Assembly: GCA_016844925.1 (NCBI GenBank)
Contig: JAERTI010000055.1
Location: forward strand, 65,459-129,458
Direction of reading: 5' to 3'
Length of the DNA stretch: 64,000 nucleotides
Source: Candidatus Uhrbacteria bacterium
GTDB taxonomy: Bacteria; Patescibacteriota; Patescibacteriia; UBA9934; GWF2-40-263
The notes below the pieces were generated by a model. That model did not search any database, was not told the origin of the DNA, and was given only the letters and a program-made list of their open reading frames with translations. Of this stretch, positions 933 through 61,508 are shown one piece after another (position 1 is the stretch's first letter; every line of letters begins with the position of its first letter). A program made the translations under genes and the position numbers.

Positions 933-1844
933 ATGACCATTATGGAGGCCCTCCAATGGGCCAATAACAAGCTCAAAAAGGCTGGTGTTGAATCTCCCAT
1001 GCTTGATGCAGAGATTCTCCTGGCACATACCCTTGGCCAAAGTAAAGCCTGGCTCTTTTCTCATTTCAACGACAAGCTCAAGACCCACCACAACGAACGT
1101 TTTCATGAGCTCGTCGATCGACGAGCTCAGCGAGAGCCCGTGGCCTACCTCACAGGAAAACGAGCCTTCTACGGCCGTGACTTCCAAGTAAACGCCATGG
1201 TGCTGATCCCGCGTCCTGAAACGGAAACCATGGTCGACGCCGCTCTGCACACCCTTGAAGAACACGACCCAGAAAAAACGCTCATCTGCGACATCGGCAC
1301 GGGCTCTGGTGCTCTGGGGGTCACCCTCGCTGCAGAGACCTCACTCCCAGTCATTGCCATCGATGTCGACAAGCAAGCTCTCGCCGTTGCACAACGCAAC
1401 GCCCAAAACCTTGGCACTGCTGACAACATCGACTTCCAACACGGCTCCCTGGCCGAGCCACTCATTCGCATTTTCAAAACCATTCGTGGACAGAAGAAGG
1501 TAAAGACGTCATCGGTCTACCCCTTTAAGCATCTGCTCATCACCGCCAACCTCCCCTATCTTCCCGAGGGACGACTCGACTCTACAGAGCCAGAAGTGCA
1601 CGCCTTTGAGCCCCACCTCGCCCTCATCGCAGGCAGAGACGGCCTGGATGCGTACTTCGACCTCTTCCGTCAGCTGCGCGATAACCGCCACGTCCTCCCC
1701 CGCCGCCTGACCGTCCTGATCGAGATCGACCCAGAGCAACGACGCGGCGCCGAGAAGCTCATCACGCACAGCTTCCCCACGGCAATACTGTCCGTACACA
1801 AGGACCTACAAAAACTAGACCGCATCATAGAAGTCGAGCTCTAA
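933..1844 (+). CDS. prmC: Release-factor glutamine N5-methyltransferase (PrmC/HemK family)
   Basis: 303 aa. It has the SAM-binding motif DIGTGSGALG and an NPPY-like ITANLPYLPEG motif. Confidence 0.8.
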   Translation: MTIMEALQWANNKLKKAGVESPMLDAEILLAHTLGQSKAWLFSHFNDKLKTHHNERFHELVDRRAQREPVAYLTGKRAFYGRDFQVNAMVLIPRPETETMVDAALHTLEEHDPEKTLICDIGTGSGALGVTLAAETSLPVIAIDVDKQALAVAQRNAQNLGTADNIDFQHGSLAEPLIRIFKTIRGQKKVKTSSVYPFKHLLITANLPYLPEGRLDSTEPEVHAFEPHLALIAGRDGLDAYFDLFRQLRDNRHVLPRRLTVLIEIDPEQRRGAEKLITHSFPTAILSVHKDLQKLDRIIEVEL

Positions 1845-1847
1845 CGC

Positions 1848-1876
1848 TTGACTTTTGTCTTTTCTAAAGCAATACT
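1848..1876 (+). promoter_or_regulatory. Sigma70-like promoter of high-GC cassette I1 (TTGACT, 17-nt spacer, AATACT)
   Basis: The -35/-10 elements lie directly after the prmC stop and are followed by RBS gaaaggaagg and a GTG start. Confidence 0.4.
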
Positions 1877-1905
1877 CCAGTCGCCTCAACGAAAGGAAGG
1901 TTCCC

Positions 1906-2730
1906 GTGAACTCTCGTTCTTCGCTCTCGGAAACACCGTACAGATTCAAGTCCGCTTTCGATGCGTACCACCGTGCCTCGCGCGGCGAGTCGCTCACCAA
2001 CCTGCGCGAGCGACGTGGCAGTGCAGCCAAGAAGTGCCTGGGCTGGCTGACCACCATCGTCGTGGGGCTGGCCTGCGCCGCACTGCTGTTCGCCGGCCCC
2101 GAGCTGATCACCACGATCCAGGGCGAGAACCCGCCCATGGGACCAGCGATGGTTGGCATGGTCCTGATCATGACCTCCTTCATCTGCCTCCTCCACGGAG
2201 GTCTCTGGCTTCCGATCCGTCTGATCGAGCTGGGTCGACTCAGTTGGAAGCTCAGGGGCACCAAGAGCCTCACGCGAACGCCGCGAGAGGAGCTCGAGCT
2301 CCTGAACACCCTGCACCGACTCGCCGAGCAGGTCCGAAACTCCCGGCTCCTGATCTACTGGTGCGAGAGTCGCTTCGGTGTCTACGAGCGTCTTCGTGAC
2401 AGCGGTCAGGTGGAGCGCCACCCTGAGGAGCGAACCATCAAGCTCGGGATCGAGCGGCTCGTCCGCCAGGTCGAGGAAGAGACCCGCGCCGTCGACGGTC
2501 TGCTGATGACCCACAAGAGCACCACCAACGAGGAGCTCCAGGGACTGATCAACCAGATCAAGTCTCGTGAAGGTCTTCACACGGTCGGCACGCGACTGAT
2601 GCTGCTCTCCACCATGGACCCGACCACGCAGCACGACCACTACATCGCAGCCAACAAGTACGAATACCCCGGCGACCCCGCGATCGGTGAGCTCCTCCCG
2701 ATCCTGCAGACCCGCCTCAACTTCGCCTGA
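1906..2730 (+). CDS. High-GC ORFan membrane protein (2 predicted TM helices plus coiled cytoplasmic region), probably GTG start
   Basis: GC3 is about 90% in the + frame. It has a strong SD and the hydrophobic segments LGWLTTIVVGLACAALLF and MVGMVLIMTSFICLL. The antisense 308-aa ORF was rejected. Confidence 0.5.
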   Translation: MNSRSSLSETPYRFKSAFDAYHRASRGESLTNLRERRGSAAKKCLGWLTTIVVGLACAALLFAGPELITTIQGENPPMGPAMVGMVLIMTSFICLLHGGLWLPIRLIELGRLSWKLRGTKSLTRTPREELELLNTLHRLAEQVRNSRLLIYWCESRFGVYERLRDSGQVERHPEERTIKLGIERLVRQVEEETRAVDGLLMTHKSTTNEELQGLINQIKSREGLHTVGTRLMLLSTMDPTTQHDHYIAANKYEYPGDPAIGELLPILQTRLNFA

Positions 2731-2742
2731 ACACGTCAGGCC

Positions 2743-2768
2743 GACCCCACCCCTGGGGTCTTTTTTCT
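2743..2768 (+). terminator. Rho-independent terminator of cassette I1
   Basis: The hairpin gaccccacccctggggtc is followed by tttttt. Confidence 0.6.
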
Positions 2769-2775
2769 TCCCAAA

Positions 2776-2800
2776 CAAAAAACCGCCCACATGGGGCGGC
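2776..2800 (-). terminator. Rho-independent terminator for the minus-strand gene 2806..3900
   Basis: The minus strand reads ccgccccatgtgggcgg followed by tttttt. Confidence 0.55.
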
Positions 2801-2805
2801 TCCCT

Positions 2806-3900
2806 CTATTCAATTTCTATTGATCCCTCTCCTGGCACCACCTCAATCCATGTCACGCCAGCATTCATCACAACCTCTTCTTCACCAACATAGAACCTTA
2901 GACGCTCCGAGGCGCTCGGCTTCTCCCAACGCACCTCGATCACCTGGCCGTCCTGTAGCACGTACCCCTCCCCTTCACCGGTCGTACGAACCTCTCGGCG
3001 ACCAACGGAGTCGATGACGGATACGTCTGTGACAACTACAGCAATATTATCAGCTTCAATCCGCCCACCTTCATCTGTCACATGCGGCGCATCGAACTGC
3101 CAACGTTCATACCTTCCGGTTTCTGCGTTGTATTCCCAATCAACAGTATAAATCGGTGGGAAGAAATCGATATGAAGCGTTGATTCTGCCTCGGCAGGCT
3201 CTGGATCTTTAAACGTCCACAGGCCGTAGAGCCGCTCTGGGGCGACTCCCTGCTCCTCCCGAAGCTCGGAAAAAGCGAGTAGATTCTCACTCGAAGTAAA
3301 GACATTGTGTGGAGCGTATCGATCCGACGCGCGCCAGAAGTAACTCCCCCACCAGTACTGATTGAAATCGAATGTGCCCCCTGAGGCGATCAGGTCGAGC
3401 GCTGCGTTCGACCCACCAACGTGTGTGTAAAGTGCGTCGAGCTCATTGTTCCAATCAAGATAGTACGGACGCGCAGAGCGCACAGGACCAATCTTCTCTA
3501 GCTCCTGCTCTTCATGAAAAAATGCGAGCATGCGAGAGATCCCCGCCTCCACTGGCGCTTCCACAACCAGGAACGCCTCGTTGATTCCAGATGGCGGCCA
3601 GGCGTCTTCGTGATTGTCGATCATGACACCAAAGACACGCGGATAATCCGCAGGCTCTTCAGTCATTGAGACACCAGTTAATGGATGTTGATACATCACC
3701 ACATCCTCAACCGTATCCTGATCATCTGTTTGAGCACCCTCCGTCTCACCACGATAGACAAAATCCGGAAGGATCATTGCCACAAGAACACCAAGCACCA
3801 CCACAACCAGAAGACCGACGGACATTTGCCAGTCGGTCTTTTTCAAGCGCGTCTTTGCACGCTTGGTAGTCTTTTGTTCTTTCTTCTTTGAAGATGACAT
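2806..3900 (-). CDS. Membrane-anchored hypothetical protein (Lys-rich N-terminus, single TM, large extracytoplasmic domain)
   Basis: 364 aa. The N-terminus reads MSSSKKKEQKTTKRAK, followed by the TM segment VGLLVVVVLGVLVAMIL. Confidence 0.55.
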   Translation of the reverse strand: MSSSKKKEQKTTKRAKTRLKKTDWQMSVGLLVVVVLGVLVAMILPDFVYRGETEGAQTDDQDTVEDVVMYQHPLTGVSMTEEPADYPRVFGVMIDNHEDAWPPSGINEAFLVVEAPVEAGISRMLAFFHEEQELEKIGPVRSARPYYLDWNNELDALYTHVGGSNAALDLIASGGTFDFNQYWWGSYFWRASDRYAPHNVFTSSENLLAFSELREEQGVAPERLYGLWTFKDPEPAEAESTLHIDFFPPIYTVDWEYNAETGRYERWQFDAPHVTDEGGRIEADNIAVVVTDVSVIDSVGRREVRTTGEGEGYVLQDGQVIEVRWEKPSASERLRFYVGEEEVVMNAGVTWIEVVPGEGSIEIE

Positions 3901-3902
3901 GA

Positions 3903-4565
3903 TTATTCAGCAGCCTTCTCTTCACCCTCAGCCTTCTCTTCCCCTTCAGCAGGTGTCTCTGCACCAGCATCACCAACTGGCTCATCAAGTTCAGCCATCT
4001 GTTTTGCTGTTCGTGGCTTACTGACTCCAGCAATGGTCAAGTTTGCATCACCAACAATCTCCATACCCTCTGGAAGCTCGAGGTCTGATACGCGAATCAC
4101 GTCATCAAATGTTGCAAGCTTGGAAAGATCCACCTGAATGGAGCGAACAAGCTTCGATGGGAGCGCTCGGACATTCACGGTATCTCGTGACTGCATCAGA
4201 GTTCCACCCAATGCCTTCACGGCAGCAGACTCACCAACGAGCTCGAGAGTTACAACCGCCTCAATCTCCTTATCCATATCTACGGATCGGAAATCGATGT
4301 GGATCACCTCGTCGCGAAGTGGGTCCAACTGATAGTCGTGAATCAACACGTGAAGAGGCTGTGCCTCAGCAACCTTGAGCTCGATAACGGAACTCTCACC
4401 AGCGGCTTTGTAGGTTTTAATAAATTGGTTTCGATCAACAGTAATCGACTGTGGATCAGTTCCAGCACCGTACACAACAGCAGGAACAAGACCTTCTCCG
4501 CGCAATACGGATGTTTTTCGGCCCTTTTCTGCTCGTGCCTGCGCTTGCAAGGTAATTTGAGACAT
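3903..4565 (-). CDS. rplY: Ribosomal protein L25 / general stress protein Ctc with acidic C-terminal extension
   Basis: 220 aa. The sequence is L25/Ctc-like (KGRKTSVLRGEGLVPAVVYG) with an EEKAEGEEKA tail. Confidence 0.8.
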   Translation of the reverse strand: MSQITLQAQARAEKGRKTSVLRGEGLVPAVVYGAGTDPQSITVDRNQFIKTYKAAGESSVIELKVAEAQPLHVLIHDYQLDPLRDEVIHIDFRSVDMDKEIEAVVTLELVGESAAVKALGGTLMQSRDTVNVRALPSKLVRSIQVDLSKLATFDDVIRVSDLELPEGMEIVGDANLTIAGVSKPRTAKQMAELDEPVGDAGAETPAEGEEKAEGEEKAAE

Positions 4566-4617
4566 AAGATAAATTCGTAAGTAGCGGCGCTATTGTGCTT
4601 AAAAACGTCGAATACGT

Positions 4618-4652
4618 CAAGTCACAAACCGAAAGGCACGCCTTAGCGTGCC
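4618..4652. terminator. Bidirectional terminator hairpin (ggcacgc-ctta-gcgtgcc) with flanking T/A runs
   Basis: The hairpin lies between convergent genes. Confidence 0.5.
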
Positions 4653-5053
4653 TTTTCATTTTTCTTTGTTTGTCTGAGGCGTTTTCGAATCACTTTTGAG
4701 AGCTGCTCTCTATAAACTCTTCCCAGTGACTCTTCCCAGCCTGGCGCGTCCATCCATCGATGAACTTCGATCACATCGTCCAGTTCAACGGCTCGTTCAG
4801 ATCGAAATCGCAGGACATCCTCATAAGCCAGGTCTGTCAGAAGCCCGACAGAACTTGCTCCCACTTGATTCACGAGAACCAGAGCGAGGATAGAATTTTG
4901 GCACTTGCGACACGTGACGTGCAGGAGCTGTGTCTGCCCTTGCGTCCCAAGCATACGCGCCTCCATGGGGTTATAACGCGTCTCGCACACCGGACAGAAT
5001 GAAACAAGTTTGAGCCCTTCATTCCACCGATCAGAACCTTGTGTTGATGACAT
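4643..5053 (-). CDS. Small zinc-ribbon protein (CxxC...CxxC), hypothetical
   Basis: The likely start is MSSTQGSDRW. The zinc-ribbon motif is CPVCETRYNP...CRKCQN. Confidence 0.4.
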   Translation of the reverse strand: MSSTQGSDRWNEGLKLVSFCPVCETRYNPMEARMLGTQGQTQLLHVTCRKCQNSILALVLVNQVGASSVGLLTDLAYEDVLRFRSERAVELDDVIEVHRWMDAPGWEESLGRVYREQLSKVIRKRLRQTKKNEKAR

Positions 5054-5138
5054 ACGGCCAAGATAGATTTCTAAGAACGAGTCCCCACGAGAATGACGAG
5101 TGTAGCTCGCCCTCACTCACTAAAAACAATACCACGAC

Positions 5139-6269
5139 TCATCTGAGATGACTACCGCGCCCACGGATCGCCACAGACTGAATCACCGCGGCAAGAACCA
5201 GCATCACCACCAAGGAACTTCCTCCGTAACTTACGTACGGAAGTCCGATACCTGTCACGGGAAACAATCCGAGGTTCATGCCGACATTCACGAGAAATTG
5301 AAGAAAAATAACGATCCCGACTCCCAGAACAAGATACGCCGTAAAATCGTCAGACGCTCGCCGGGCCATTTGCCATAGACGGACAAACAACAGCGCGAAC
5401 GCCACCATAAGAAGACTAACTCCAAAGAACCCAAGCTCCTCGGCAATCACAGCAAAGATAAAGTCCGTCTGACTCTCAGGCAAAAACTTCAGCTGGCTCT
5501 GCGTTCCAAATCCAAGACCACTCCCAAACCATCCTCCAGAACCAATCGCAATGATCGCCTGCGTCACGTTATATCCCTGACCGAGCGGATCCAAACTTGG
5601 ATCCAAAAACGTGAGGATGCGAGCCTTCTGATACGCCGCAAAGAAATATTGCCAACTCAGATAAAACGCTCCGACCCCCACGGTTCCCATAAGAGCAATG
5701 TACCGCCACGGCATTCCCGCGAACATCATCACCATAATCCACAACCCCATCAACACTGACGCGGACCCAAAATCGGGCTGCATGAGAACCAAGACCACTG
5801 GTACGGCCGTAATGAGGCCACTCTGATACAGGCTCCGTAGACTGAATGGACGCACAGCCTTTCGTGAAAAATACGTTGCCAGAGCAATCACAAGCGACAC
5901 CTTCATGAGCTCCACGGGCTGGAAGCTCACTGGCCCTAAAACAAACCACCCCGTGGAGCCACGAATCGTATTTCCAAACACCAACACGGCCGCAAGCAAT
6001 CCATTGCACAGGACATAGAATGCCAAGGAATAATTCTGGAGTGATTTGTAATTCGAAAGAGCGATGACAAGAAAGGCCGCTCCCCCCACTGCCATAGCAA
6101 TAAGCTGCTTTTTTACATTAAGAAAACTCCCTGATGCCTGAGAAAGCTCCACGGAATAAATCGCACTGAGCCCAAGGGCCAGCAAGGCAAACAAGGCCAA
6201 CAAAAATAACCAGTCCGCGCTACGCAGCTGGCCAATCCTCCGCACCATCGTGAGTGATCGTAGGTTCAT
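5139..6269 (-). CDS. ftsW: FtsW/RodA/SpoVE-family peptidoglycan glycosyltransferase
   Basis: This is a multi-TM SEDS-family protein. The real start is possibly the internal MVRR at 6248. Confidence 0.8.
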   Translation of the reverse strand: MNLRSLTMVRRIGQLRSADWLFLLALFALLALGLSAIYSVELSQASGSFLNVKKQLIAMAVGGAAFLVIALSNYKSLQNYSLAFYVLCNGLLAAVLVFGNTIRGSTGWFVLGPVSFQPVELMKVSLVIALATYFSRKAVRPFSLRSLYQSGLITAVPVVLVLMQPDFGSASVLMGLWIMVMMFAGMPWRYIALMGTVGVGAFYLSWQYFFAAYQKARILTFLDPSLDPLGQGYNVTQAIIAIGSGGWFGSGLGFGTQSQLKFLPESQTDFIFAVIAEELGFFGVSLLMVAFALLFVRLWQMARRASDDFTAYLVLGVGIVIFLQFLVNVGMNLGLFPVTGIGLPYVSYGGSSLVVMLVLAAVIQSVAIRGRGSHLR

Positions 6270-6272
6270 AGG

Positions 6273-7220
6273 CTACCGGAAGACTCGAGTACGCGTGTCG
6301 CGCGTACTCTCCCCCTCAAGTGCCTTGTACGTATCAAGATCAAAAAGGTCAAGCTCGACCACCACCTCAACGTCCCCAACGGACGGCAATGCTCCGAACC
6401 AATTTAAGACCACCTCCTTACTTACACCACTATCTAAATCTGTCAGCGTCGTCCGATTCACCCCCACAACAGAATCTCCCTTTTTCAGAAGAACATAGAA
6501 AACAGGGTCGTAATAACTAAATGCCGTGGCATTCTCAAGCGTAAACGAAGTACGACCAAAAATCGTGTCATCAAATCTGGTCTCTTTGCTATAGACAAGA
6601 TCGCTCACAATAATATTGAGACGATCTGACGACCACTCCTGATAATCATTCACTACATGATGATCCACGCGACGCCAACGCACATCTTCTATAGAAAGCG
6701 TTGCTTCTGTAATCGGCACATCAGACTCCACGGCCAAATCCACTACGGGTTTTGTTTCTCCTGGAAGAATAAACCCCTCATGAACCTCACCATTCTCGAG
6801 GTCGGTATCAAACGAATACGTAAACTCCGCCCACCAGTCAGCATTAGGATTGATAAGCGATGCATACAAATCATACGTACCGCCCCCTGTAGAAAACACC
6901 TTCTCACGATCCACATCCAAATCCTCCGCGGCATTGGCAACCGTGTACGCATGCAGGTCAGCCTGCCCATACGCCACCATCTTCGCTACCGCCAATTGCT
7001 CATCCCCATAACTAATCGCAAACGCATCAAGAAGATGCCATCCACCAAACAAAAGAAGTCCTGTATCAACCGCAATGAACAGCCCGATGGCCAATCGTTT
7101 AATCTGCGCACGGTGACTCACCCACCACAGAGAAAACCGATACTGACGCTCTGTTTCTTTTTCCTCTTCTAGGAGTAATCCTCCATCTTCCATACGATAA
7201 AAGTATACCACGAGATCCAC
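6273..7220 (-). CDS. Hypothetical membrane-anchored protein
   Basis: 315 aa. It has an N-terminal TM segment (LAIGLFIAVDTGLLLFGGW). It lies directly upstream of ftsW on the same strand. Confidence 0.5.
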   Translation of the reverse strand: MDLVVYFYRMEDGGLLLEEEKETERQYRFSLWWVSHRAQIKRLAIGLFIAVDTGLLLFGGWHLLDAFAISYGDEQLAVAKMVAYGQADLHAYTVANAAEDLDVDREKVFSTGGGTYDLYASLINPNADWWAEFTYSFDTDLENGEVHEGFILPGETKPVVDLAVESDVPITEATLSIEDVRWRRVDHHVVNDYQEWSSDRLNIIVSDLVYSKETRFDDTIFGRTSFTLENATAFSYYDPVFYVLLKKGDSVVGVNRTTLTDLDSGVSKEVVLNWFGALPSVGDVEVVVELDLFDLDTYKALEGESTRDTRTRVFR

Positions 7221-7256
7221 CTATGTGGGCTTGGAATTCGCCTCCAAATCATGTAA

Positions 7257-9389
<2,133 letters not shown>

Positions 9390-9900: not shown

Positions 9901-9901
9901 A

Positions 9902-9930: not shown

Positions 9931-9966
9931 CCCCTGTCGCCCAAAACGCGACTAAAGGAGCCGCTG

Positions 9967-51763: not shown

Positions 51764-51773
51764 CCGCCATCTT

Positions 51774-54272
51774 ATGAGCCATGACATCGTCGACAAATTT
51801 TCTTCCCACCTAAAAAACGTGCTCACGCGCGCTCTGTGTTTTGTGGTGGAAAAAAATCAAAAGACCATCCAGCCAGAACACCTCCTCTGGGCCCTTGGTA
51901 CACAGAAAGGTTGCATTGGTGCAGAGGTCTTGAAAAAAGCTGGTGTCAAAACAGCGGACCTAAAGAAGCTCGTTGGAGCAAAAGCAACGGTCACAGCCCT
52001 AAGCGCTGGCGCAGACCTCACGCTCCACCTCTCTGACGATGCCAAGCGTATCGTAGAAAAAGCCGTGCTCACGGCAAATGTGTATGGGCACCGCTATGTG
52101 GGTACAGAGCACCTGCTCTCGGGCATCATTCAAATCGATAGCCCCATCACACGTGCCTTCTTTGCACGTCACAAGACCGACCTCAAAGAACTTCGCAACC
52201 AGCTCTCCGTTGTTCTCAAGAGCACAAGTAAGTTTCCCGAACTTGCTTCATCCGTCACGGTCGAGAACGCCGACTTGCTCACACAAAACAGCAACAAGGA
52301 GAAGAGTGCGCAGCAATCCACCGGACAAGAAGAAGAAAAGAAGTCGTCCGCGTTGGAATACTTTTCTACCGAGCTTACAAGCGCTGAAGCGCAAAAACGT
52401 ATCGATCCAGTGATCGGTAGAGAGAAAGAGATTGAACGTCTCATGGAGATCCTCTGTCGTCGCACAAAGAACAACCCCCTCCTCTTGGGAGAGCCTGGTG
52501 TAGGAAAGACCGCCATCGTTGAAGGGCTTGCAAAGCGCATTCACGAAGGGCAGGTTCCGCCCGTCCTCGCACACAAACGTCTCTATGCTCTGGACATGGC
52601 CCTCATGATCGCCGGCACCATGTACCGTGGAGAGTTTGAAGGACGCCTCAAACAGGTCGTCGACGAAGTGAAGTCAAACCCAGACATCGTGCTCTTTATC
52701 GATGAGATCCACACGATCGTCGGCGCCGGTGCTGCTTCAGGTTCCATGGATGCCGCAAACATTTTGAAACCCGCTCTAGCGCGAGGTGACATTCGTTGTA
52801 TTGGTGCCACCACACCTGCTGAATTTAAAAAACACATTGAATCTGACACTGCTCTGGAGCGCCGCTTTGGAACGGTTATGATCGAAGAACCTTCGCAAGA
52901 AAAAGCTATTGAGATTCTCGAAGGTATCTCCCCCTACTACGAACGCTTCCACCGCGTACGTATTAGCCATGGGGCTATTGAACAAGCCGTGCGTTTGTCG
53001 TCTCGTTATATTCAAGACAAACACTTGCCAGACAAGGCCATTGATTTAATTGATGAAGCTGCGGCATCGACCCGCGTCCACCAGCACAACCCAGGACCCA
53101 TCATGAAAGAACGGGAGCTCTATGACATGCTCGACAGCGTACGAGAAGCAAAACGTCTCTCGGTCACAGAAGAACGGTTCCACGATGCCATCGCGCTCAA
53201 AGATGAAGAAGACTTGATTCGCCTGCGCATCGAAGGGCTCCGCACCGAGGAAGACACCTCCCCCGTTCCCGTTATTGCTGAAGAAGATATCGCTCGAGTT
53301 GTTTCTCGATCTACTGGTGTCCCCCTTGAGGATATGCTCGAAGGCGATCTCAGCCGACTTCTCGGACTGGAAACACAACTTTCCGATCGTGTCTTAGGGC
53401 AACCTTCTGTTATCGACACCGTCTCCGGAGCCCTGCGACGCGCCAAGACCGGCGTCGCTCACCCCGCTCGCCCATTGGCAAGCTTCTTGTTCCTTGGTCC
53501 ATCAGGCGTTGGAAAGACCGAACTCGCTAAGACCATCTCCGAACTGCTCTTCCACTCCAAGCAACACTTCATTCGCCTAGACATGTCTGAGTACTCAGAA
53601 GGTTTCACCATGTCAAAGCTGATCGGCGCACCGGCCGGCTACGTCGGCTATAAGGAAGGAGCAAACCTCACCGACCGTGTGAAACGACGTCCCTACTCTG
53701 TTGTGCTGTTCGACGAAATCGAGAAGGCACACCGCGATGTGCAAAACCTCCTGCTCCAAATTTTGGAGGAAGGTGAGCTTACCGATGCCACGGGTCGCAA
53801 GGTCAATTTCAAAAATACGATTGTCATCATGACCTCCAACGTTGGTCTTGAGCGTTTTGACCGTGGCGACATGGGGTTCATGTCTGGTGCCAGCGACCGC
53901 ATCATGGCACTCAACCAAGATCTTCACGAAGAACTTACGCAACGCTTCCGTCCAGAGCTCGTGAACCGTATTGACCACACCTGCATCTTCAACCCCCTCG
54001 AGCAGGACGTCTTGGAATCCATCGTTAAGAAACAACTGGACGAACTCACGGCTCGTCTGAAAGATCAGGGTCTCCACGTACACGTTGAAAAAACCCTCAT
54101 CCCCCACCTCACATCACTGTCACAACCAAAGTTGGGGGCACGAAATATCCGTGCACAAATTCAGAAGCACGTTGAACACGCGATCGCTGAACGCCTCAGT
54201 AAAAAAGATCGCCCAAGCAAACTTCGTGTGAAACTTAAAGGAAAGAACATCCAGGTAACCAAGTCTCGCTAG
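51774..54272 (+). CDS. clpC: AAA+ chaperone ATPase ClpC-like (two Clp_N repeats, two AAA modules)
   Basis: The motifs [15 protein letters not shown] and [12 protein letters not shown] are present. There is no long ClpB middle domain. Confidence 0.85.
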
Positions 54273-54273
54273 T

Positions 54274-56097
54274 ATGGTAACGGGGGGAGACGAACAACAA
54301 CGCTACCAGAAGTATCGCCAGCAATTGCACCAGGCGCGTCTTGAGGATGCCAAGAAAGCAGGAGGTACAGCTGGGACACAGGCCGGAGCAAAGACAAAAG
54401 GACAGATTAAGGGAGGTGATCTATTCACGCGCAAAGGCCAACCTGAGAGTATTCCAAAAAAAGGACAAGCTGGATCAAAAACCGCAGGGAGGATTAAAGG
54501 CGATGATTTGTTTCAGCGAGCACAATCTCAACCCTCACAACCCCAAAAAGACTCCACGCTGAAAGACAAAGCTCGAGACACAGCACGCACAGGCGCAGCG
54601 ACCGTTGAAAAAGGAGCGGCTGCCGTGGAAACGGGAGCGGCAACGGTTGAAAAAGGAGCAGCGACCGTAGAGACAGGTGCGGCAACGGTGGAATCGGCTG
54701 CAAAAGGCACCGAAACCGCTGCACAGGGAGCTGAGGCATTAGCGAAGGGAGTTGGCGCTGCATCAAAGGCAACAGGTGCCGCATCAACGGCAGCTCTTGA
54801 AGCGGGTGAAGCTCTTTCTGCAACAGGTCTGGGATCCATTGTTGGCGTCCCTCTGGCAGCCCTTGGTGGTGCAGGTGCCGCCGCCTCAAAGGGGACTGAA
54901 GCCGCTGCGACAGCCGGAGGAGCGGCTGCGAAGAGCGTGAAGGAAGGAGCGAAAGTTGTTGGCGAGGGGGCAAAGGATGTGAAAGAAGGGGCTAAGGAGG
55001 TAAAGGAAGGCGCTCAGAAAGTAAAAGAAGGCGCCCGCAACGTGAAAGAGCAGGCTGGGGACGTTAAAGATGCTCTGAGTGAAGACGACGAACAAGATCA
55101 AGAAGAACTCCCTGAGGAGACACGTGACCGGATAAGAAAGATTCGTCTTGCTGGCGCGCGCATGCGTCTTTCAGATGCACGTGATCGCACACAAGAAAAA
55201 GGTCTCTCCCCTACGCGTTTTGAGATGGGACGAAAACATTTTGGTGTCACTGACCCAGACAGACCAGACGAACTCACAAGGACCCCTGGTGATGGTACGC
55301 GAGATCTTTTTGATGCCGGCGAACAAGACATGAAACGCAAGGCAGCACTACGGACCGCCCGCATGGCAGAACTCGTTGGTGGTAAAAAATTTGCTGGCAA
55401 ACTTAGGCAAGGGGTTGCAAGTCCGGCTGCGCTCAAGGGCGGGCAACTAGGAGAACTTCCACGTGGTGGTGTGCAGACAAAGGACACGACCAAACAACCT
55501 GACACAGGAGCTGACACGGCACAACAGATGCAAGATGACATGACTATGCGCCACAGACTTGCACAGGTCATGATGACGCGACAACGCAAGCAACAACTTG
55601 CTCAACAGAAATCTCAAAAAGAGCAGAAGGCCATCGAAGAGCAGCGCGCCGAGGTGAAGCAAACAATGAAAGCCGGCTTCAGGCGCGGCATGATTTACAT
55701 CGTAGATCTCGTCGCCGTTGCCCTTGATCTCTCTAGTGGATTCATCTCGTTCTTGATCGACATGTTTATCTATATGTTCTCCCTTGGTTGGCTGAATCTT
55801 GAGATGTTCTACGGAAAATGGATTGCCAAAGGAGAAAGCCGATACATCTCCCCCATCTCTTGGGCGCCATTTAAAATGCCTGTCGATAAAGACGCCTTCA
55901 TGCTCCAGGGCCTTATTCTCATGGCTGACCTTGCTCTCATGATAGCTTTTGCCATTGTTACTACCGGCACCTTCTGCATTCTTCACGACTACATGCTCCT
56001 GGTCACAGACCCCTTTCTGGTCGCCACCTCCCTTGCAAACGGCGGGGGAAAGATGTGTCTAGGTGGTATACTAGGATCACTTGTGAGCGGCATTTAA
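54274..56097 (+). CDS. Repeat-rich LEA-like protein with C-terminal TM helices
   Basis: It has 11-aa repeats (ATVEKGAAAVETGAATVEKGAATVE) and KEGAKxVKEGA repeats. The C-terminus is hydrophobic. Confidence 0.5.
   Translation: MVTGGDEQQRYQKYRQQLHQARLEDAKKAGGTAGTQAGAKTKGQIKGGDLFTRKGQPESIPKKGQAGSKTAGRIKGDDLFQRAQSQPSQPQKDSTLKDKARDTARTGAATVEKGAAAVETGAATVEKGAATVETGAATVESAAKGTETAAQGAEALAKGVGAASKATGAASTAALEAGEALSATGLGSIVGVPLAALGGAGAAASKGTEAAATAGGAAAKSVKEGAKVVGEGAKDVKEGAKEVKEGAQKVKEGARNVKEQAGDVKDALSEDDEQDQEELPEETRDRIRKIRLAGARMRLSDARDRTQEKGLSPTRFEMGRKHFGVTDPDRPDELTRTPGDGTRDLFDAGEQDMKRKAALRTARMAELVGGKKFAGKLRQGVASPAALKGGQLGELPRGGVQTKDTTKQPDTGADTAQQMQDDMTMRHRLAQVMMTRQRKQQLAQQKSQKEQKAIEEQRAEVKQTMKAGFRRGMIYIVDLVAVALDLSSGFISFLIDMFIYMFSLGWLNLEMFYGKWIAKGESRYISPISWAPFKMPVDKDAFMLQGLILMADLALMIAFAIVTTGTFCILHDYMLLVTDPFLVATSLANGGGKMCLGGILGSLVSGI
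54590..54720 (+). repeat. Tandem 33-bp coding repeats (11-aa units)
   Basis: The unit gcgaccgttgaaaaaggagcggc is repeated with variation. Confidence 0.6.
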
Positions 56098-56118
56098 CCT
56101 TGCCGTAAATCCCATGCT

Positions 56119-57351
56119 ATGACCGAACGAACCAAAAAAATCTTACTCATCGTGGGCTTTATCGCGTCCGTGTTCGGCATCGCGTTAGTCTTGTACCTGA
56201 TGTTCTTCCGCCCCCCAGCCCCAGCTCCTACCGTTGAAGAAATTGAAGAGCTGTACCCTGAAGCGCTTCCGGAAGCTCTTGAAGCGCAGGTGCGAGAACT
56301 TCTTGAACAGGAAGGCATTGCCGTTCCTGAAGAAATTGTTCTCCCGGAAGCTGACACCATCGCACGTGGCGGCGTAACGCAGACCACCGAGCTCACAACC
56401 ACAGCCGTCTACAACACCTCAATCTCTGCTGACGGTTCATCCATGAACTACTACAACAGCGGAGACGGACGGTTCTATACCATTGGTGAAGACGGAACCG
56501 TCGTAGCACTCTCTGATAAACAGTTCCCATCCGTTGAGAACGTTGTTTGGAACAAAGACTCAGAAAAAGCGGTCCTCGAGTTTCCAGATGGTTCCAATAT
56601 TGTGTATGACTTCTCCGCGGAAAAACAGGTAACGCTACCTAGTCACTGGGAAGACTTCGACTTCTCCCCTGTGCAAGACGAGATTCTCGCTAAGTCCATT
56701 TCCCTTGATCCAAACAATCGCTACCTAGTGATCTCTTCTGATGACGGTTCTCAAGTGCAATCCATCCAAGCCCTGGGAGAAAATGCCGATAAGGTCGACG
56801 TAAACTGGTCTCCAAATGACCAAGTTGTCGCATTTGCTGATACAGCAAACGCCACTTCAGGAGGGCTCAATCGATCTGTCATCTATCCTGTTGGTAAAAA
56901 CAAGGAAAATTACAAAGGCCTCGTGGTTGAGGGATTAAACTTCGACTCCCTCTGGTCTCCCGATGGTCGGCAGTTGATCTACTCCGTAACGGGTTCTTAT
57001 AGCAACGACAAACCTCTGCTATGGGCTGTCAGTGCAACCAGTGCAACCATGGGTGAAGACCGACGGAGCCTTGGACTCAATACCTGGGTTGATAAATGCA
57101 CCTGGGCATCCAGCTCCATTGCGTACTGCGCCGTACCAATCGACCTTCCAGACAACGCTGGTCTTGGTCGACATCTTTACGAAAACGAACCTGACGCCCT
57201 CTATAAACTTGACCTCTCATCAGGTCGATCAACACTCGTAGCGATTCCTGAAGAAGATACGGCCATGAACGACCTCTTTTTAACTGATGACCAGTCAGTA
57301 CTGTACTTCTCAAACACCTACGGACAGATTGAGATGATGCGTCTAAAATAA
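56119..57351 (+). CDS. TolB-like beta-propeller (PD40/WD40-like repeats) membrane-anchored protein
   Basis: It has an N-terminal TM helix and the repeats WSPNDQVVAF and WSPDGRQLIYS. Confidence 0.55.
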   Translation: MTERTKKILLIVGFIASVFGIALVLYLMFFRPPAPAPTVEEIEELYPEALPEALEAQVRELLEQEGIAVPEEIVLPEADTIARGGVTQTTELTTTAVYNTSISADGSSMNYYNSGDGRFYTIGEDGTVVALSDKQFPSVENVVWNKDSEKAVLEFPDGSNIVYDFSAEKQVTLPSHWEDFDFSPVQDEILAKSISLDPNNRYLVISSDDGSQVQSIQALGENADKVDVNWSPNDQVVAFADTANATSGGLNRSVIYPVGKNKENYKGLVVEGLNFDSLWSPDGRQLIYSVTGSYSNDKPLLWAVSATSATMGEDRRSLGLNTWVDKCTWASSSIAYCAVPIDLPDNAGLGRHLYENEPDALYKLDLSSGRSTLVAIPEEDTAMNDLFLTDDQSVLYFSNTYGQIEMMRLK

Positions 57352-57362
57352 CCTTACATCCT

Positions 57363-58010
57363 ATGCACCACAGATGGCTCACCCTCCTATCAATCGGCGC
57401 CTTATCCCTGATGGTGTTTATCTTTTTCATTGTTTACCTCCAGCCGGTTGAGCTCCCTGAGATTGAACTTGAGGTAGAAGTCGGCTCTCTCACAAAACCA
57501 ACGATCACCTTCGTGAATCCTACCAAGGGCGCAGAAGAACCCGTGGTGCGCATTGTGGAGTTTAGTGATTTTCAATGTGCCGCTTGTAAGACGGTTGCTA
57601 CCTCACTTGAGGTAGTCCTGGCCACCTACCCCGAGCAAGTTCAGCTCGTTTGGAAAGATCTTCCAAATGAATCGATTCATCAATTCGCCACCCCTGCCGC
57701 CATAGCCGCGCACTGCGCAGACCAACAAGGACAATTTTGGACGTACCACGATGAGCTCTATGCTCGTCAAAGTTACCTTTCTGAAAACCAGTTTTCCACC
57801 ATTGCCTCAACCATTGGTTTGGATATGGATAAATTTGAGAGCTGCTACCAAGCACGCGACACACTCCCTATTGTGAAAAAAGATTTCGAAGAAGCTCTCG
57901 GACTCGGTCTCACCTCCACCCCAACACTCTTTATCGGCGATGAGATCGTCATCGGTGCTGTCAGTTCTCTGGACCTCTTGGACATGGTTGAAGCTCAACT
58001 GAACCAGTAA
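57363..58010 (+). CDS. DsbA-family thiol:disulfide oxidoreductase
   Basis: It has an N-terminal TM helix and the CxxC motif FQCAACK in a thioredoxin fold. Confidence 0.7.
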   Translation: MHHRWLTLLSIGALSLMVFIFFIVYLQPVELPEIELEVEVGSLTKPTITFVNPTKGAEEPVVRIVEFSDFQCAACKTVATSLEVVLATYPEQVQLVWKDLPNESIHQFATPAAIAAHCADQQGQFWTYHDELYARQSYLSENQFSTIASTIGLDMDKFESCYQARDTLPIVKKDFEEALGLGLTSTPTLFIGDEIVIGAVSSLDLLDMVEAQLNQ

Positions 58011-58011
58011 T

Positions 58012-59130
58012 ATGCGAACCTTGCGCGCCCTCCCCTTCTTGATGATCCTCTTGGGCGCGTTTTTGTTTGGAGGCACTGCCTTGGCAGAAGACGCCACGTC
58101 CACAGATGCCACAGCCACACCTGCTACAAGCGAGGTGGTTGAAGGAGCTATCATCCCAAACCTCACTGTCGACATCCCCGGCCTGACGTTTTCCTCGGTG
58201 ATTGAAAAAGACGGATCTTTGCACATCAACTTCTTTGGGGAGTACATGGCGGCCCTCTACAAATATCTCCTCAATATTGGCGTCACCATTTCCATTGTCC
58301 TTATCATGATCGGAGGTCTTCAATGGGTTCTTAGCGCAAGTGGCACAGATGCCAAAGGAGCCAAAGACCGAATTCGCAACGCCGTCGTCGGCCTCGTGCT
58401 CCTGATGAGCGTGTACATGATCTTATTTATTGTAAATCCGAACCTTGTTCTTCTGCAGACTCCTGCCATCAAGGGTATCGACGAGGTAGAACTTGAGCTT
58501 GCCACCAGCGGAGAAGAGGGTGCTGCCGGCACCATGAGCAACGTTGAATGCCAAAACATTGTCGATGAAGCTCAAGAAGACGGCGAATGTAAGATCAGTC
58601 AAAAATTTGCCTCCCCCACTGGAAGGAGTGCCAGTTGCAACTACCACTTCCGTGATTCAGGTGGTGACTACAAAAAAATCAAAAATCTCGACTTCGCAGC
58701 TGGATGGGATACCTTGATCAAAGCTCCTTTCGACGGAACCCTCACCTACAAAAAGCGAACCTCCGCTGATAACCGCTGCGGAAACACCATCACGCTCACG
58801 GGTACGGGTGATGCTGCTGGAGCAAGTATTTCTATCTGTCACGTAAAAGATTTCCTTGATGAATCCGGCGTAGTGAAAACGACCGTGGAGCAAGGAGAAG
58901 GGATCGGGCACCTGGGCGGCGTCTGTTGTAGCGGAGAAGAAGGCCCGGCCAGCTGGCGTGCCATGCAAAACGGCTGGTGCACTGACACCGGAACAAAATG
59001 TACCGATCCCTACAGCCGAGAGAGCTGCACCTGCCAACCCATCGAACAATCCGGCAACACCTCCGGTCCACACGTTCACGTTACATGGAGCAATACTGCT
59101 GGTAATCTATTAGCATGTCTGGAAACGTAG
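58012..59130 (+). CDS. Secreted/membrane-anchored Cys-rich M23-like peptidase
   Basis: It has a signal peptide and two hydrophobic helices. The C-terminal motif SGPHVHVTW is M23 HxH-like. There are more than 12 cysteines. Confidence 0.5.
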   Translation: MRTLRALPFLMILLGAFLFGGTALAEDATSTDATATPATSEVVEGAIIPNLTVDIPGLTFSSVIEKDGSLHINFFGEYMAALYKYLLNIGVTISIVLIMIGGLQWVLSASGTDAKGAKDRIRNAVVGLVLLMSVYMILFIVNPNLVLLQTPAIKGIDEVELELATSGEEGAAGTMSNVECQNIVDEAQEDGECKISQKFASPTGRSASCNYHFRDSGGDYKKIKNLDFAAGWDTLIKAPFDGTLTYKKRTSADNRCGNTITLTGTGDAAGASISICHVKDFLDESGVVKTTVEQGEGIGHLGGVCCSGEEGPASWRAMQNGWCTDTGTKCTDPYSRESCTCQPIEQSGNTSGPHVHVTWSNTAGNLLACLET

Positions 59131-59134
59131 TGTT

Positions 59135-60199
59135 ATGAAACACCGCAACCTCTTCACTCCCCTGATCGCTCTGACAACCCTCTTGCTGGGCCTCTCTTTT
59201 AGTGGCACGGCCTTGGCTGAATCAAAGTTCCTCACCCCAAAGATGTCCGTGGACATCCCTGACCTGAAATTTACGGAGATTGTCCAAGAAGGAACCTCTC
59301 TTCAAATCAACTACCTGGCCGATTACATCTCCGCTATCTATCTTTGGTTGATAGGTTCTGCGACACTCATCGCCATTGTCATGATCATGATTGGTGGCCT
59401 GCAATGGACACTCTCTGGTGGATCCATCATGGGCGATGGTGGAAAAAGCTCAGCCTCTGCCGCTAAGACACGAATTAAGAATGCCGTCATTGGCCTGGTT
59501 CTGCTCATGTCTACGTACATGATTCTGTTCATTGTGAATCCCAACTTGGTTCGACTCGCGTTCCCAGAACTTGAAGCCATCCCTCTTGTGGATCTCCCAA
59601 ATGAATCAGGTACAAACCTGGAAGACTACGAGTGGGCTGAATCTACGGCCGTCAGCAACGGAGCCAACGGATGGAACGATGTAGTCATGTATAACCAGAA
59701 GAGCTATGAATCGACCCCTTACGGCGTCTGTGGAAACGTAAAGACCTCTGGTTGTGGTGTTGCCTCCTATGCTATGGCTGCCTCACATCTCTCTGGCACG
59801 GAAGTGAAACCAGACGAGGTGGCCGCTAGATTTGCCGATGAAGGTTACCGTGTATGCGCTGAAGGTACTGAACCAAACCCAGAAGGCCCCTGCAGTACCT
59901 GCCAAGGAACAGCAGCAGCCGCATTCTTCCAGTCTAGCTACCGATCTGAACTTGGCATCGAGGGGAACTACATCGGACACACGCAAGCAGACATCACGAC
60001 AGCGCTCGATGCGGGTCAACTCGTCATTATTTCTTACAGAACAAAAGGTGGTGGTGGTCACTATGTGGTCATTACCGGCTATGATGAAGACGGAAATGTT
60101 CTGGTAAATAACCCTTGGGGAGGCACAAAAGAAAAACGAAGCTGGAGCCAGATCACCAGTACGATTAAATCCGCTACAGCCATTCGAAAATCAAGCTAG
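59135..60199 (+). CDS. Secreted/membrane-anchored papain-like (C39-like) peptidase
   Basis: Its N-terminal module is paralogous to the preceding gene. The Cys motif CGVASYAMA and the His motif GGGGHYVVITGYD are present. Confidence 0.5.
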   Translation: MKHRNLFTPLIALTTLLLGLSFSGTALAESKFLTPKMSVDIPDLKFTEIVQEGTSLQINYLADYISAIYLWLIGSATLIAIVMIMIGGLQWTLSGGSIMGDGGKSSASAAKTRIKNAVIGLVLLMSTYMILFIVNPNLVRLAFPELEAIPLVDLPNESGTNLEDYEWAESTAVSNGANGWNDVVMYNQKSYESTPYGVCGNVKTSGCGVASYAMAASHLSGTEVKPDEVAARFADEGYRVCAEGTEPNPEGPCSTCQGTAAAAFFQSSYRSELGIEGNYIGHTQADITTALDAGQLVIISYRTKGGGGHYVVITGYDEDGNVLVNNPWGGTKEKRSWSQITSTIKSATAIRKSS

Positions 60200-60200
60200 T

Positions 60201-61508
60201 ATGTTCGTCTGTACAAACTGTGATGCCCAGTCAGCCAAGTGGGCAGGAAAATGCATGGAGTGTGACAAATGGGGCACGCTGCAAAAACAGGAGGAGGTCC
60301 GCTTAAGCGGTCCTCTTAAGTCTGTAAAAGTAACAGCAGGTACCAGCAAGCCACTCAAGGATGTTGGTAAACAAAACGAACACGACCGCATCAGCACAGG
60401 CGACGGCGAGACCGACCGCGTCCTGGGCGGCGGAATCGTCCGCGGATCTCTCGTCCTGCTCTCTGGTGAACCCGGCATTGGAAAGTCGACCCTCGTGGCG
60501 GCCATTGCTGGTTCGATTAAAGAGACCGTCTTGTATGTATCCGGCGAGGAATCCCCTACACAACTTGCAGCACGATTCGCACGACTGGGTAAATCTGTCG
60601 ATTCTGTCCGTGTCCTCGACCCCCTCCCGATTGAAACTCTCGTCGCTACGATTGAGAAAGAAGCCCCCGCCCTCGTGGTCGTCGATTCTGTTCAGACACT
60701 CTCCTCTTCACAGCTCGACTCCACCGCAGGCTCCCCCACCCTCGTGCGCTACGCCACCTCCCTCCTGCTCGACCTCGCCAAGCGCACAAACATCTCCGTC
60801 CTGCTGGTAGGCCAAGTCACCAAGGACGGCTCCATCGCCGGCCCTAAGACCCTAGAGCACCTGGTCGATGCCGTCGTGAACCTAGAGGGAGATCCCGTCC
60901 ACGCCTACCGCATGCTCCGCGCCAGTAAGAACCGCTTCGGCGCCACAGATGAGATCGGTGTGTTCGAGATGAAACAAGAAGGCCTCGTGGCAGTACCAAA
61001 CCCATCCGAGAGATTCTTGGCAGAGAGGTCCAACACCCCAGGCTCTGTCATAGCCGCCATGGTAGAGGGCTCACGAGTCTTCTTAGTCGAGGTCCAGGCC
61101 CTCGTAGAAAAAAGCAGCTACGGCACCCCAGTCCGCCGCGCAAGTGGCTTTGACCAAGGACGCCTACAAATGCTCATCGCCATCCTCTCAAAACGCGCCG
61201 GCCTAAAACTCGGCGAGATGGATGTCTACATCAACGTCATAGGAGGTATGAAACTCACCGAACCAGGAGCCGACCTAGCTGTCTGCGCCGCAATCAACGG
61301 CGCATTCAAAAACACCGTCGACGAAGCCGCAACGGTGTACATGGGTGAAGTTGGATTGGGGGGTGAAGTGCGGTCCGTGCCTATGATCGAGAAAAGGTTG
61401 GTAGAAATAGCCCGGCTGGGATTACCACGAGCAGCAGTGCCAGCGAAGAGTCGAGGAAAGAGTAAAGGACTGGAGATTGTGAAGGTTGGAAACGTGAAAG
61501 AGTTTTAA
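60201..61508 (+). CDS. radA: DNA repair protein RadA
   Basis: It has an N-terminal zinc finger, the Walker A motif GEPGIGKST and a Lon-like C-terminal domain. Confidence 0.9.
   Translation: MFVCTNCDAQSAKWAGKCMECDKWGTLQKQEEVRLSGPLKSVKVTAGTSKPLKDVGKQNEHDRISTGDGETDRVLGGGIVRGSLVLLSGEPGIGKSTLVAAIAGSIKETVLYVSGEESPTQLAARFARLGKSVDSVRVLDPLPIETLVATIEKEAPALVVVDSVQTLSSSQLDSTAGSPTLVRYATSLLLDLAKRTNISVLLVGQVTKDGSIAGPKTLEHLVDAVVNLEGDPVHAYRMLRASKNRFGATDEIGVFEMKQEGLVAVPNPSERFLAERSNTPGSVIAAMVEGSRVFLVEVQALVEKSSYGTPVRRASGFDQGRLQMLIAILSKRAGLKLGEMDVYINVIGGMKLTEPGADLAVCAAINGAFKNTVDEAATVYMGEVGLGGEVRSVPMIEKRLVEIARLGLPRAAVPAKSRGKSKGLEIVKVGNVKEF

Follow-up and report, generated by a model that had tools for sequence, protein, structure and literature searches.

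Two modes of translation initiation probably coexist in a Candidatus Uhrbacteria chromosome: Shine-Dalgarno-free core genes beside Shine-Dalgarno-led GC-rich cassettes

Why should a group of GC-rich genes carry strong Shine-Dalgarno (SD) sequences in a chromosome whose core genes largely lack them? The question is raised by a 64,000-nucleotide stretch (hereafter the window) of contig JAERTI010000055.1, in which ten GC-rich open reading frames (ORFs), here called the island ORFs Ia and Ic to Ik, lie in gaps between core operons. An earlier reading of the sequence (the original prediction) held that each island ORF has a strong SD sequence and that the native genes have none, took the ORFs to come from, or to be designed for, a translation system different from that of the host, and doubted whether they are expressed. 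Here, we confirm the SD observation, which is highly significant and broader than first stated, and propose another explanation for it, to which we give a probability of about 0.65: two initiation modes coexist in one cell, an SD-free mode for the core genes and an SD-led mode for the cassettes that contain the island ORFs.

The window is a natural stretch of the chromosome of Candidatus Uhrbacteria, a groundwater bacterium with a small genome that belongs to the Candidate Phyla Radiation (CPR). Its gyrB (7302-9389) is 78-80% identical to that of Candidatus Uhrbacteria metagenome-assembled genomes, and all near relatives are Patescibacteria. Exact public matches on the NCBI contig were found for 8 of the 10 small ORFs looked up, the Logan assembly of the same genome (L088) is 100% identical across window positions 1-9214, and a sister strain from ENA (L081) is 89-96% identical and collinear to 17.6 kb. 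Six further loci used below (L083, L085, L087, L089, L091 and L092) come from related or distant CPR genomes. The background GC content of the window is ~0.52, with several short stretches at 0.60-0.70, and the GC content at third codon positions (GC3) of native genes is ~0.45-0.65 (median ~0.56). The window contains no tRNA and no Rfam family, and no rRNA was found in it or in 93 fetched loci.

How sharp is the split between the two gene classes? The free-energy scan proposed with the original prediction was run on the 64 kb window and 7 kb of the same genome from L088. We scored the duplex energy of positions -20 to -3 against 5'-CACCUCCUUA-3', with a cut-off of -7.0 kcal/mol, for 47 native starts curated by first ATG, family-model N-termini and ortholog alignments, and separately for the 10 curated island ORFs (GC3 0.80-0.95). 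All ten island ORFs lie at or below the cut-off (range -7.0 to -11.6, median -8.8 kcal/mol), whereas only 4 of the 47 native genes (9%) reach it and their median is -1.5 kcal/mol (Mann-Whitney p = 3.5e-6 for the energies; Fisher p = 2.3e-8). An 18-mer reaches -7 or stronger by chance at a rate of 0.097 in island sequence and 0.086 in native sequence. Thus, ten out of ten would arise by chance with a probability of ~7e-11, and the native count matches the background rate, so that the native genes are without any SD enrichment. The 3' end of the GGAG core lies 5-6 nt from the start codon in all ten island ORFs, within the 5-9 nt first given, and all ten motif strings first quoted were located before GC-rich ORFs. 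The ten native genes named as SD-less (gyrB, rplK, rplA, nusG, gatB, clpC, htpX, radA, pheS and tyrS), whose identity NCBIfam confirmed, all stay short of -7, nine of them scoring +1.3 to -5.1 and htpX -6.8 kcal/mol.

The general claim that native genes lack an SD sequence holds for 43 of the 47 starts, with a remainder at background rate; it fails for two small ORFs of native composition that carry SD-like motifs:

40622-40927, minus strand: small membrane ORF of 101 amino acids, GC3 0.58, with AGGAGG 2 nt before the ATG.
18942-19262, plus strand: coupled ORF of 106 amino acids; GAGGAG stands 8 nt from the ATG, within the last part of the gene upstream.

The first of these (40927-40622) is preceded by a -10 box TACAAT and a leader of 25 nt. 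Another candidate for a native SD sequence, at ATG 4954 on the minus strand, was rejected as a ribosome-binding site because its GGAGG falls within the coding sequence of a conserved zinc-ribbon ORF.

What do native starts have instead? A T at position -1 precedes 42 of the 47 native starts (among them 7302, 13599, 14075, 26553, 51774 and 60201) and none of the 10 island starts (Fisher 7e-8), and T stands before only 10-11% of other or internal ATGs. It is the sole strong position in the native -20 to -1 region, which consists of 33% T, 27% A, 21% C and 19% G. The native region from -25 to +35 folds weakly (-8.0 kcal/mol, GC 0.43) compared with native gene interiors (-12.9 kcal/mol) and with island starts (-13.6 kcal/mol, GC 0.59). 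Furthermore, 25 of 47 native starts (23 of 45 plus g18942 and g19267) lie at most 25 nt from an upstream stop, typically TAA or TAG plus 1-4 nt, which suggests termination-reinitiation for about half of them. In SD-less CPR genomes, the T at -1 may form part of a longer UAUG start signal. A genome-wide avoidance of TATG, which would point to a four-nucleotide start signal, was discarded as unspecific, since the observed/expected ratio is 0.79 here and 0.78-0.93 in other phyla. As a separate observation, anti-SD-like pyrimidine runs, the opposite of an SD sequence, stand just before some native starts: gatB has ACCTCCTGTGCATATG (26535-26555), the prmC and dcd leaders of L083 (1200-1221; 13735-13758) have CCCCCTCC(T)CCCTATG, and the secE leader of L085 (11670-11710) has repeated CCACCTCC.

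Could the split be an artefact of chance purine motifs in GC-rich DNA, wrong native start calls or chimeric assemblies? Public gene callers do mis-call at least one island, where they report an antisense ORF (Ia), and several native ORFs have upstream GTG or TTG extensions. However, the chance probability given above, together with correct spacing in all ten cases, does not fit random motifs; the native starts fit family models from residue 1-3, the T(-1) signature was not used in choosing them, and the islands are present in three independent assemblies. We regard an artefact as barely credible.

What kind of units are the islands? Each island ORF has its own promoter, a leader of 26-42 nt, an SD sequence and a hairpin-plus-T-run terminator. 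The promoters combine a -35 box TTGAC(A/T) (TTGCAT once) with a weak -10 box (T/A/G)AnnnT over a spacer of 17 nt in nine cases and 16 nt in one. For the pattern TTGAC[AT]-N16-18-TANNNT, 8 occurrences were counted where 1.4 are expected; six of them precede island ORFs. The original prediction treated the island ORFs as a class apart, and this is borne out: they are accessory genes with their own expression signals.

Ia, 1848-2769, plus strand: promoter 1848-1853 and 1871-1876 (-35 TTGACT, N17, -10 AATACT); SD GAAAGGAAGG at 1891-1900; ORF 1906-2730 from GTG, a 274-amino-acid membrane/coiled-coil ORFan, GC3 0.82; terminator 2743-2769.
Ic, 9902-11943, plus strand: promoter 9902-9907 and 9925-9930 (-35 TTGACA, N17, -10 TAATCT); SD AAAGGAG at 9954-9960; ORF 9967-11589, 540 amino acids, TasR-like and IS110-related, GC3 0.82; GC-rich gene-free tail 11590-11915; terminator 11916-11943.
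Id, 11973-12658, plus strand: promoter 11973-11978 and 11996-12001 (-35 TTGACA, N17, -10 TAGTCT); SD AAAGGAGG at 12015-12022; ORF 12028-12483, a 151-amino-acid signal-peptide ORFan, GC3 0.81; 3' tail with GTTGAGCCCCCTG motif; terminator 12631-12658.
Ie, between rplA and dcd, plus strand: promoter 14800-14805 and 14823-14828 (-35 TTGACA, N17, -10 TACCCT); SD AGGAGGGA at 14847-14854; ORF 14858-15331, 157 amino acids, GC3 0.84; terminator 15345-15370.
If, plus strand: promoter 16076-16081 and 16099-16104 (-35 TTGACA, N17, -10 TATCTT); SD AGGAGA at 16137-16142; ORF 16147-16773, 208 amino acids, GC3 0.95; terminator 16805-16839.
Ig, plus strand: promoter 16854-16859 and 16877-16882 (-35 TTGACA, N17, -10 TATGGT); SD AAGGAG at 16909-16914; ORF 16921-17580, 219 amino acids, GC3 0.86; terminator 17595-17623.
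Ik, minus strand: promoter 31530-31525 and 31507-31502 (-35 TTGACA, N17, -10 GAAGGT); SD GGAGG at 31488-31484; ORF from ATG 31477 to ~30992, 161 amino acids, GC3 0.80; terminator 30974-30947.
Ih, minus strand: promoter 40585-40580 and 40562-40557 (-35 TTGACT, N17, -10 TTCAAT); SD AAGAGG at 40540-40535; ORF from ATG, 40529-40152, 125 amino acids, GC3 0.87; terminator 40147-40119.
Ii, plus strand: promoter 45580-45585 and 45603-45608 (-35 TTGCAT, N17, -10 TACGCT); SD GAGAGGAG at 45625-45632, first quoted as GAGAGGA; ORF 45639-46001, 120 amino acids, GC3 0.91; terminator 46028-46053.
Ij, plus strand: promoter 46078-46083 and 46100-46105 (-35 TTGACA, N16, -10 TAGAGT); SD AAGGAGG at 46120-46126; ORF 46132-46977, a 281-amino-acid EamA transporter, GC3 0.80; terminator 46968-46997.

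The same cassette architecture is found in the NCBI, ENA and Logan assemblies. A synthetic or engineered origin, which the regular units brought to mind, was dismissed on the identical or orthologous islands in these independent assemblies. Apart from Ij and Ic, the island proteins match no Pfam, PHROGs or PADLOC family; Ij has a sole homolog (54% identity) among 5.8e9 proteins, Ie has only 7 distant relatives among 1.84e9 representative proteins, and Ia has one distant relative in billions of proteins. As for hallmarks of mobility, no tRNA, no boundary repeats common to the cassettes and no integrase were found, and the IS110-related Ic is the only mobility-related protein. An integron-like array was rejected, as the cassettes have their own promoters and terminators and are spread over 45 kb, and no integrase or other tyrosine recombinase and no attC-like repeat were found. 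A phage origin was set aside for want of evidence: viral contigs contain no relatives of Ia or Ie, PHROGs matches only Ic (as a transposase) and Ij, and PADLOC gave no match.

Are the cassettes recent arrivals? The original prediction pointed this way, and its reading can be put as a recent import from a GC-rich, SD-using donor, with signals that are unameliorated relics and genes that are poorly expressed or silent. Several features favour it. The island GC3 of 0.80-0.95 stands against ~0.55 in the host, most products are ORFans, the content of the slots varies between species with some slots empty, and four cassettes (If, Ig, Ih and Ij) are singletons at the 90% identity level. In L083, L085, L087, L092 and L002, slots are either vacant or have other contents, among them different GC-rich, SD-bearing ORFs. 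Native codons within 300 nt of islands also have a GC3 of 0.64 instead of ~0.55 (for example at the prmC 3' end, 1500-1844, and in dcd, 15390-16055), which may be a faint trace of co-imported flanks or of gene conversion. We did not retain a GC3 gradient as a signature of gene conversion, because the rise is limited to the nearest 300 nt and the overall rank correlation lacks significance.

Against a recent import stands, first, the age of the cassettes. Nucleotide identity to the sister strain is 89-98% for islands and 85-97% for core genes, and this similar divergence indicates that the islands predate the strain split. Ia and Ic share their slots with relatives whose gyrB is 80-88% identical: an Ia ortholog (59% identity) occupies the same slot between prmC and the DUF3048 gene in L092 (gyrB 88% identical), with the same TTGACa-N17-AATACT promoter and CCAGnCGCC...GAAAGGA leader. 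Second, the proteins appear to be under selection. Substitutions relative to the sister strain, counted by codon position, are [1,2,14] in Ia, [14,10,51] in Ic, [7,4,26] in Id and [6,6,19] in Ie, and this concentration at third positions points to purifying selection. At Ia the same counts tell the strands apart: the antisense ORF (1864-2790, minus strand) gives [15,2,2], so that the plus-strand ORF (1906-2730) is the real gene and the antisense calls on record in L088 (308 amino acids) and L081 (305 amino acids) are wrong; the exact plus-strand product is absent from the searched protein collection. GC-rich cassettes of this kind easily come to be annotated on the wrong strand. Third, the -35 box, -10 box and SD sequence are conserved (the SD motif in L081 and L082) while promoter spacers and leaders drift; the Ie leader is rewritten in L081 with AGGAG retained, and the Ie slot is empty in L083. 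Conserved signal boxes and purifying selection both argue for function. Homologs of Ic also retain the SD sequence and the GC3 excess in distant low-GC CPR hosts (see below), and Ia and Ie have no close relatives in viral contigs. A recent import is thus unlikely in our judgement. The cassettes are most likely accessory, long-term residents whose signals work in this lineage; an origin in, or design for, a foreign translation system is unsupported, as is the doubt about their expression.

Can the host ribosome use these SD sequences? Among 25 Uhrbacteria, none has a variant anti-SD in the 3' tail of its 16S rRNA, one quoted tail being GGATCACCTCCTTT (PMC6107228, S5/S6 Tables). As Uhrbacteria retain the canonical anti-SD, the host should be able to use SD pairing, and under coexisting modes the 16S 3' tail of this genome would read GAUCACCUCCUU. 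It could be argued instead that the anti-SD is lost, or sequestered as in Bacteroidetes, and that the island motifs are non-functional or serve a CsrA-like or RNA-structural role. About half of Parcubacteria have no detectable CCTCCT (PMC9297842), Bacteroides keeps its anti-SD with SD sequences in only ~3% of genes (PMC6028130), the native genes here have no SD enrichment, and a CsrA gene with a strong SD sequence occurs in a distant CPR locus. However, besides the tails of the 25 Uhrbacteria, anti-SD loss is reported for another Parcubacteria subgroup, in which uL1 is mostly absent (PMC9297842); uL1 (rplA) is encoded here. The uniform spacing of 5-6 nt and the AGGAG kept in the rewritten Ie leader are what selection for ribosome pairing predicts. 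We therefore hold an unusable SD to be quite improbable, and a mismatch between the cassettes and the host machinery, as originally suggested, is probably wrong.

Is the split peculiar to this genome? With a crude uniform gene caller applied to 87 fetched loci, the SD fraction is 5-11% in CPR groups, 10% in Bacteroidota, 29% in Chloroflexi and 55% in a Firmicutes control, and T at -1 reaches 46-66% in CPR groups and 11-35% elsewhere. In the six further CPR loci, taken with their database gene calls, core genes are SD-less (ribosomal proteins, gyrB, nusG, EF-G, EF-Tu and others), and the Ic-like gene and GC-rich hypothetical ORFs carry GGAGG-type motifs. The association of SD sequences with a GC3 threshold in relatives is noisy (Fisher p = 0.013), because cassette-rich loci inflate the local median. 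The SD split is a lineage trait.

What is Ic? Its AlphaFold2 model (pLDDT 88.5) has TIGR-TasR 9mty as best Foldseek match (E 1.3e-7, probability 1.00, TM score by target 0.61), and phmmer also matches Ic to 9mty_A. The family is CPR-wide and related to IS110 transposases, with the domains DEDD_Tnp_IS110 and Transposase_20 (PF01548 and PF02371) recognised only in distant homologs. We rejected an identification as an IS110-family transposase: Ic has no Pfam match, it occurs once in the window, in a position that is syntenic between species, and its fold match to IS621 (E 1.8e-4) is weaker than that to TasR. Three putative arrays with internal tetraloop hairpins lie on both sides of the gene (9430-9891, 11590-11943 and 12484-12658), each with one of three near-identical terminators (9865-9891, 11916-11943 and 12631-12658). 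The first array is a unit of its own:

9430-9891, plus strand: gene-free GC-rich transcription unit, putative TIGR stem-loop array; terminator 9865-9891.

Like the DNA on the other side of Ic, it is built of repeated units of ~53-55 nt with TG...CCCCA at their borders; its fold z-score is -2.7, and it matches no Rfam family. Such features are typical of the stem-loop TIGR arrays known from phage and CPR bacteria (PMC12045711). Resting on fold models and array layout, the identification of 9430-12658 as a TIGR-Tas locus is provisional and probable. The locus resembles the systems described by Faure et al. 2025 (PMC12045711) in its TasR fold, in putative arrays on both sides that end in terminators and in repeats that begin with UG and end with CCA, and that family is known from CPR bacteria. 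It differs in the length of Ic (540 amino acids), with a conserved N-terminal beta domain of 110 amino acids, and in its flanking units, which are ~53-55 nt long with internal hairpins (stem-loop type) rather than 36-nt dual repeats.

The putative tas gene occupies the same slot between gyrB and secE in L083, L085 and L087 (gyrB ~80% identical), and it always adjoins 0.5-3 kb of gene-free DNA, including in L089 and L091. An SD sequence precedes tas homologs in 5 further genomes, including Andersenbacteria, and in two distant low-GC CPR genomes the gene keeps both SD sequence and GC3 excess. In L083 the tas-like gene (10001-11508) is split by a frameshift into parts of 450 and 49 amino acids; going by its sequence, it is decaying in that genome. 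In L085, gyrB (4796-8137, 1113 amino acids) carries an intein, with an Intein_splicing match.

Two further gene-free, GC-rich stretches stand out, one of which the window contains in part:

1-890, plus strand: 3' part of a gene-free GC-rich unit of ~1.05 kb without ORF, built like the cassettes; terminator 851-890.

This unit extends ~300 nt upstream (L088 8283-9473) in the gap between an NTP-transferase gene and prmC; L088 shows its promoter, TTGACT-N16-TATCGT, ~200 nt upstream of the first window position. It contains many hairpins with UUCG or GNRA loops (fold z-score -2.4) and matches no Rfam family, and its conservation in the sister strain is confined to the nucleotide level. It may represent either an orphan array of the TIGR type or a large, new non-coding RNA. 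At ~47005-47172 on the minus strand, TTGACA-N18-TAACTT precedes ~130 nt of GC-rich DNA without ORF or Rfam match that ends in a hairpin and T-run near 47005-47040, perhaps a small RNA gene located between Ij and the gene at 47180-47596. Rfam matched none of the gene-free GC-rich stretches of the window.

How would the two modes work side by side? In the first, core genes would start without SD pairing on AT-rich, G-poor and weakly folded start regions. About half of them would restart by termination-reinitiation near an upstream stop, and some first-in-operon genes would be translated from leaderless or near-leaderless mRNA. Native features illustrate both situations:

50328-61508, plus strand: native operon lemA-htpX-clp-...-radA, with stop-start gaps of 2, 10, 1, 21, 11, 1, 4 and 1 nt.
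7193-7302, both strands: SD-less divergent pair, hyp307 (ATG 7193, minus strand) and gyrB (ATG 7302).

The operon has no SD sequence and a T at -1 on all starts. Within these coordinates, the native ORF 54274-56097 (607 amino acids) contains tandem 21-nt (7-codon) repeats at 54591-54748 on the plus strand and probably encodes a surface or low-complexity protein. Upstream of hyp307 stands TGGTATACT, followed by 8 nt to the ATG, and gyrB has a U-rich leader without purine motif. In hyp307 orthologs of 8 genomes, the -10 box is found 7-9 nt ahead of the ATG; in prmC and the zinc-ribbon gene it is 6 nt from the start. Strong or extended -10 boxes this close to the ATG of some first-in-operon genes suggest leaderless or near-leaderless mRNA. 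In the initiator tRNA, A37 adjoins the CAU anticodon. Through A37, the U that precedes the AUG in ~90% of core genes could extend codon-anticodon pairing to four base pairs.

In the second mode, the gaps between core operons contain ten cassettes of one gene each and at least two RNA-only units. All would be transcribed from -35-driven sigma-70 promoters, the genes as monocistronic, GC-rich, leadered mRNAs that would recruit the 30S subunit through the canonical anti-SD. Because island starts fold as stably as native interiors, they are probably unable to use the unstructured-start pathway, and an SD sequence would be the standard solution to such stable folding. The proposal agrees with published findings: where non-SD genes are frequent, genomes depend on weak structure around the start codon (PMC5397173), and some genomes are known to have dual start models and classes of 'atypical' genes (PMC6028130).

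Several points weigh against coexisting modes or limit the proposal. Expression of the cassettes and use of their SD sequences by the host ribosome are read from sequence signals, and the canonical anti-SD, which this host very probably has, is taken from the tails of other Uhrbacteria. Codon-position bias is weak in If ([21,12,21]) and in Ig, so that constraint is not evident in every cassette. Cassette GC3 exceeds that of the host by 0.1 to 0.3, even for orthologs in hosts of different GC content, a pattern compatible with vertical descent and equally with repeated re-import. The excess could stem from re-import out of GC-richer Uhrbacteria, from gene conversion that is biased at exchange hot spots or from selection. 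Native start codons were assigned by rule (first ATG, homology). Leaderless transcription is suggested by -10 box positions that are clear in some genes (hyp307 orthologs, prmC and the zinc-ribbon gene), and other first-in-operon natives have a -10 box that is absent or farther off. The native gene at 31612 has a leader of 44 nt and no SD sequence behind a consensus promoter.

The latter gene (31612-32679) is a 355-amino-acid ORFan with a GC3 of 0.40, divergent from cassette Ik. A perfect TTGACA-N17-TATAAT and an A-rich leader lie upstream of it (31539-31611, plus strand), and judging by this promoter it is probably a highly expressed native gene.

Are similar arrangements known? Genomes poor in SD sequences but with a preserved anti-SD (Bacteroidetes; GeneMarkS-2 'group B' and the 'group X' cyanobacteria) likewise have no SD enrichment in core genes, have AT-rich, weakly folded starts and belong to phyla whose 16S rRNA retains CCUCC. 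The Bacteroidetes type differs in an A-rich motif at about -9 that is absent here, where the region is U-rich and U at -1 dominates; moreover, the SD-led genes here form a compositionally distinct accessory class instead of a handful of regulated core genes. The leaderless-rich GeneMarkS-2 'group C' (for example Actinobacteria and Deinococcus) shares -10 boxes 6-9 nt from some ATGs and a second gene class that uses SD sequences. There, however, operon-internal natives use SD sequences, whereas here they are SD-less (except g18942 and chance-level cases) and apparently depend on stop-start proximity, and SD sequences are confined almost wholly to GC-rich cassettes. Acquired islets or 'morons' resemble the cassettes in deviant composition, ORFan content, patchy distribution, location between conserved operons and autonomous promoter-ORF-terminator units. 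They differ in that acquired DNA is usually AT-richer than the host and the cassettes are GC-richer, in that flanking repeats, tRNA sites and an integrase were not found here, and in that several cassettes are orthologous across species yet unameliorated. No paper that describes SD-independent U(-1) core starts came up when the literature on SD or leaderless initiation in CPR, Patescibacteria, Parcubacteria and Uhrbacteria was searched in full text.

In summary, we found a split between SD-free core genes and SD-led GC-rich cassettes that marks an Uhrbacteria lineage. A bolder extension, which we put forward as a speculation with the odds well against it, is that Uhrbacteria, and perhaps much of the CPR, have a two-tier architecture: beside an SD-free core genome with U(-1)AUG starts, reinitiation and leaderless mRNAs, autonomous GC-rich 'plug-in' cassettes in conserved slots, with consensus -35 promoters, optimally spaced SD sequences and terminators, would enjoy privileged access to an otherwise idle anti-SD, keep their compositional disequilibrium for long periods and be exchanged or controlled together with TIGR-Tas. 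The probable TIGR-Tas locus would itself have its place in a conserved chromosomal slot of Uhrbacteria. If the coexistence of two modes is true, the presence of an SD sequence together with GC3 would offer an easy way to tell accessory cassettes from core genes within a genome, and gene callers trained on one start model would mis-annotate such genomes, as with the wrong strand at Ia. Uncultured CPR bacteria, or Patescibacteria, account for a large part of bacterial diversity, and the way they start translation is little known; in this lineage, core genes would start independently of SD sequences and with a very strong preference for U at -1.

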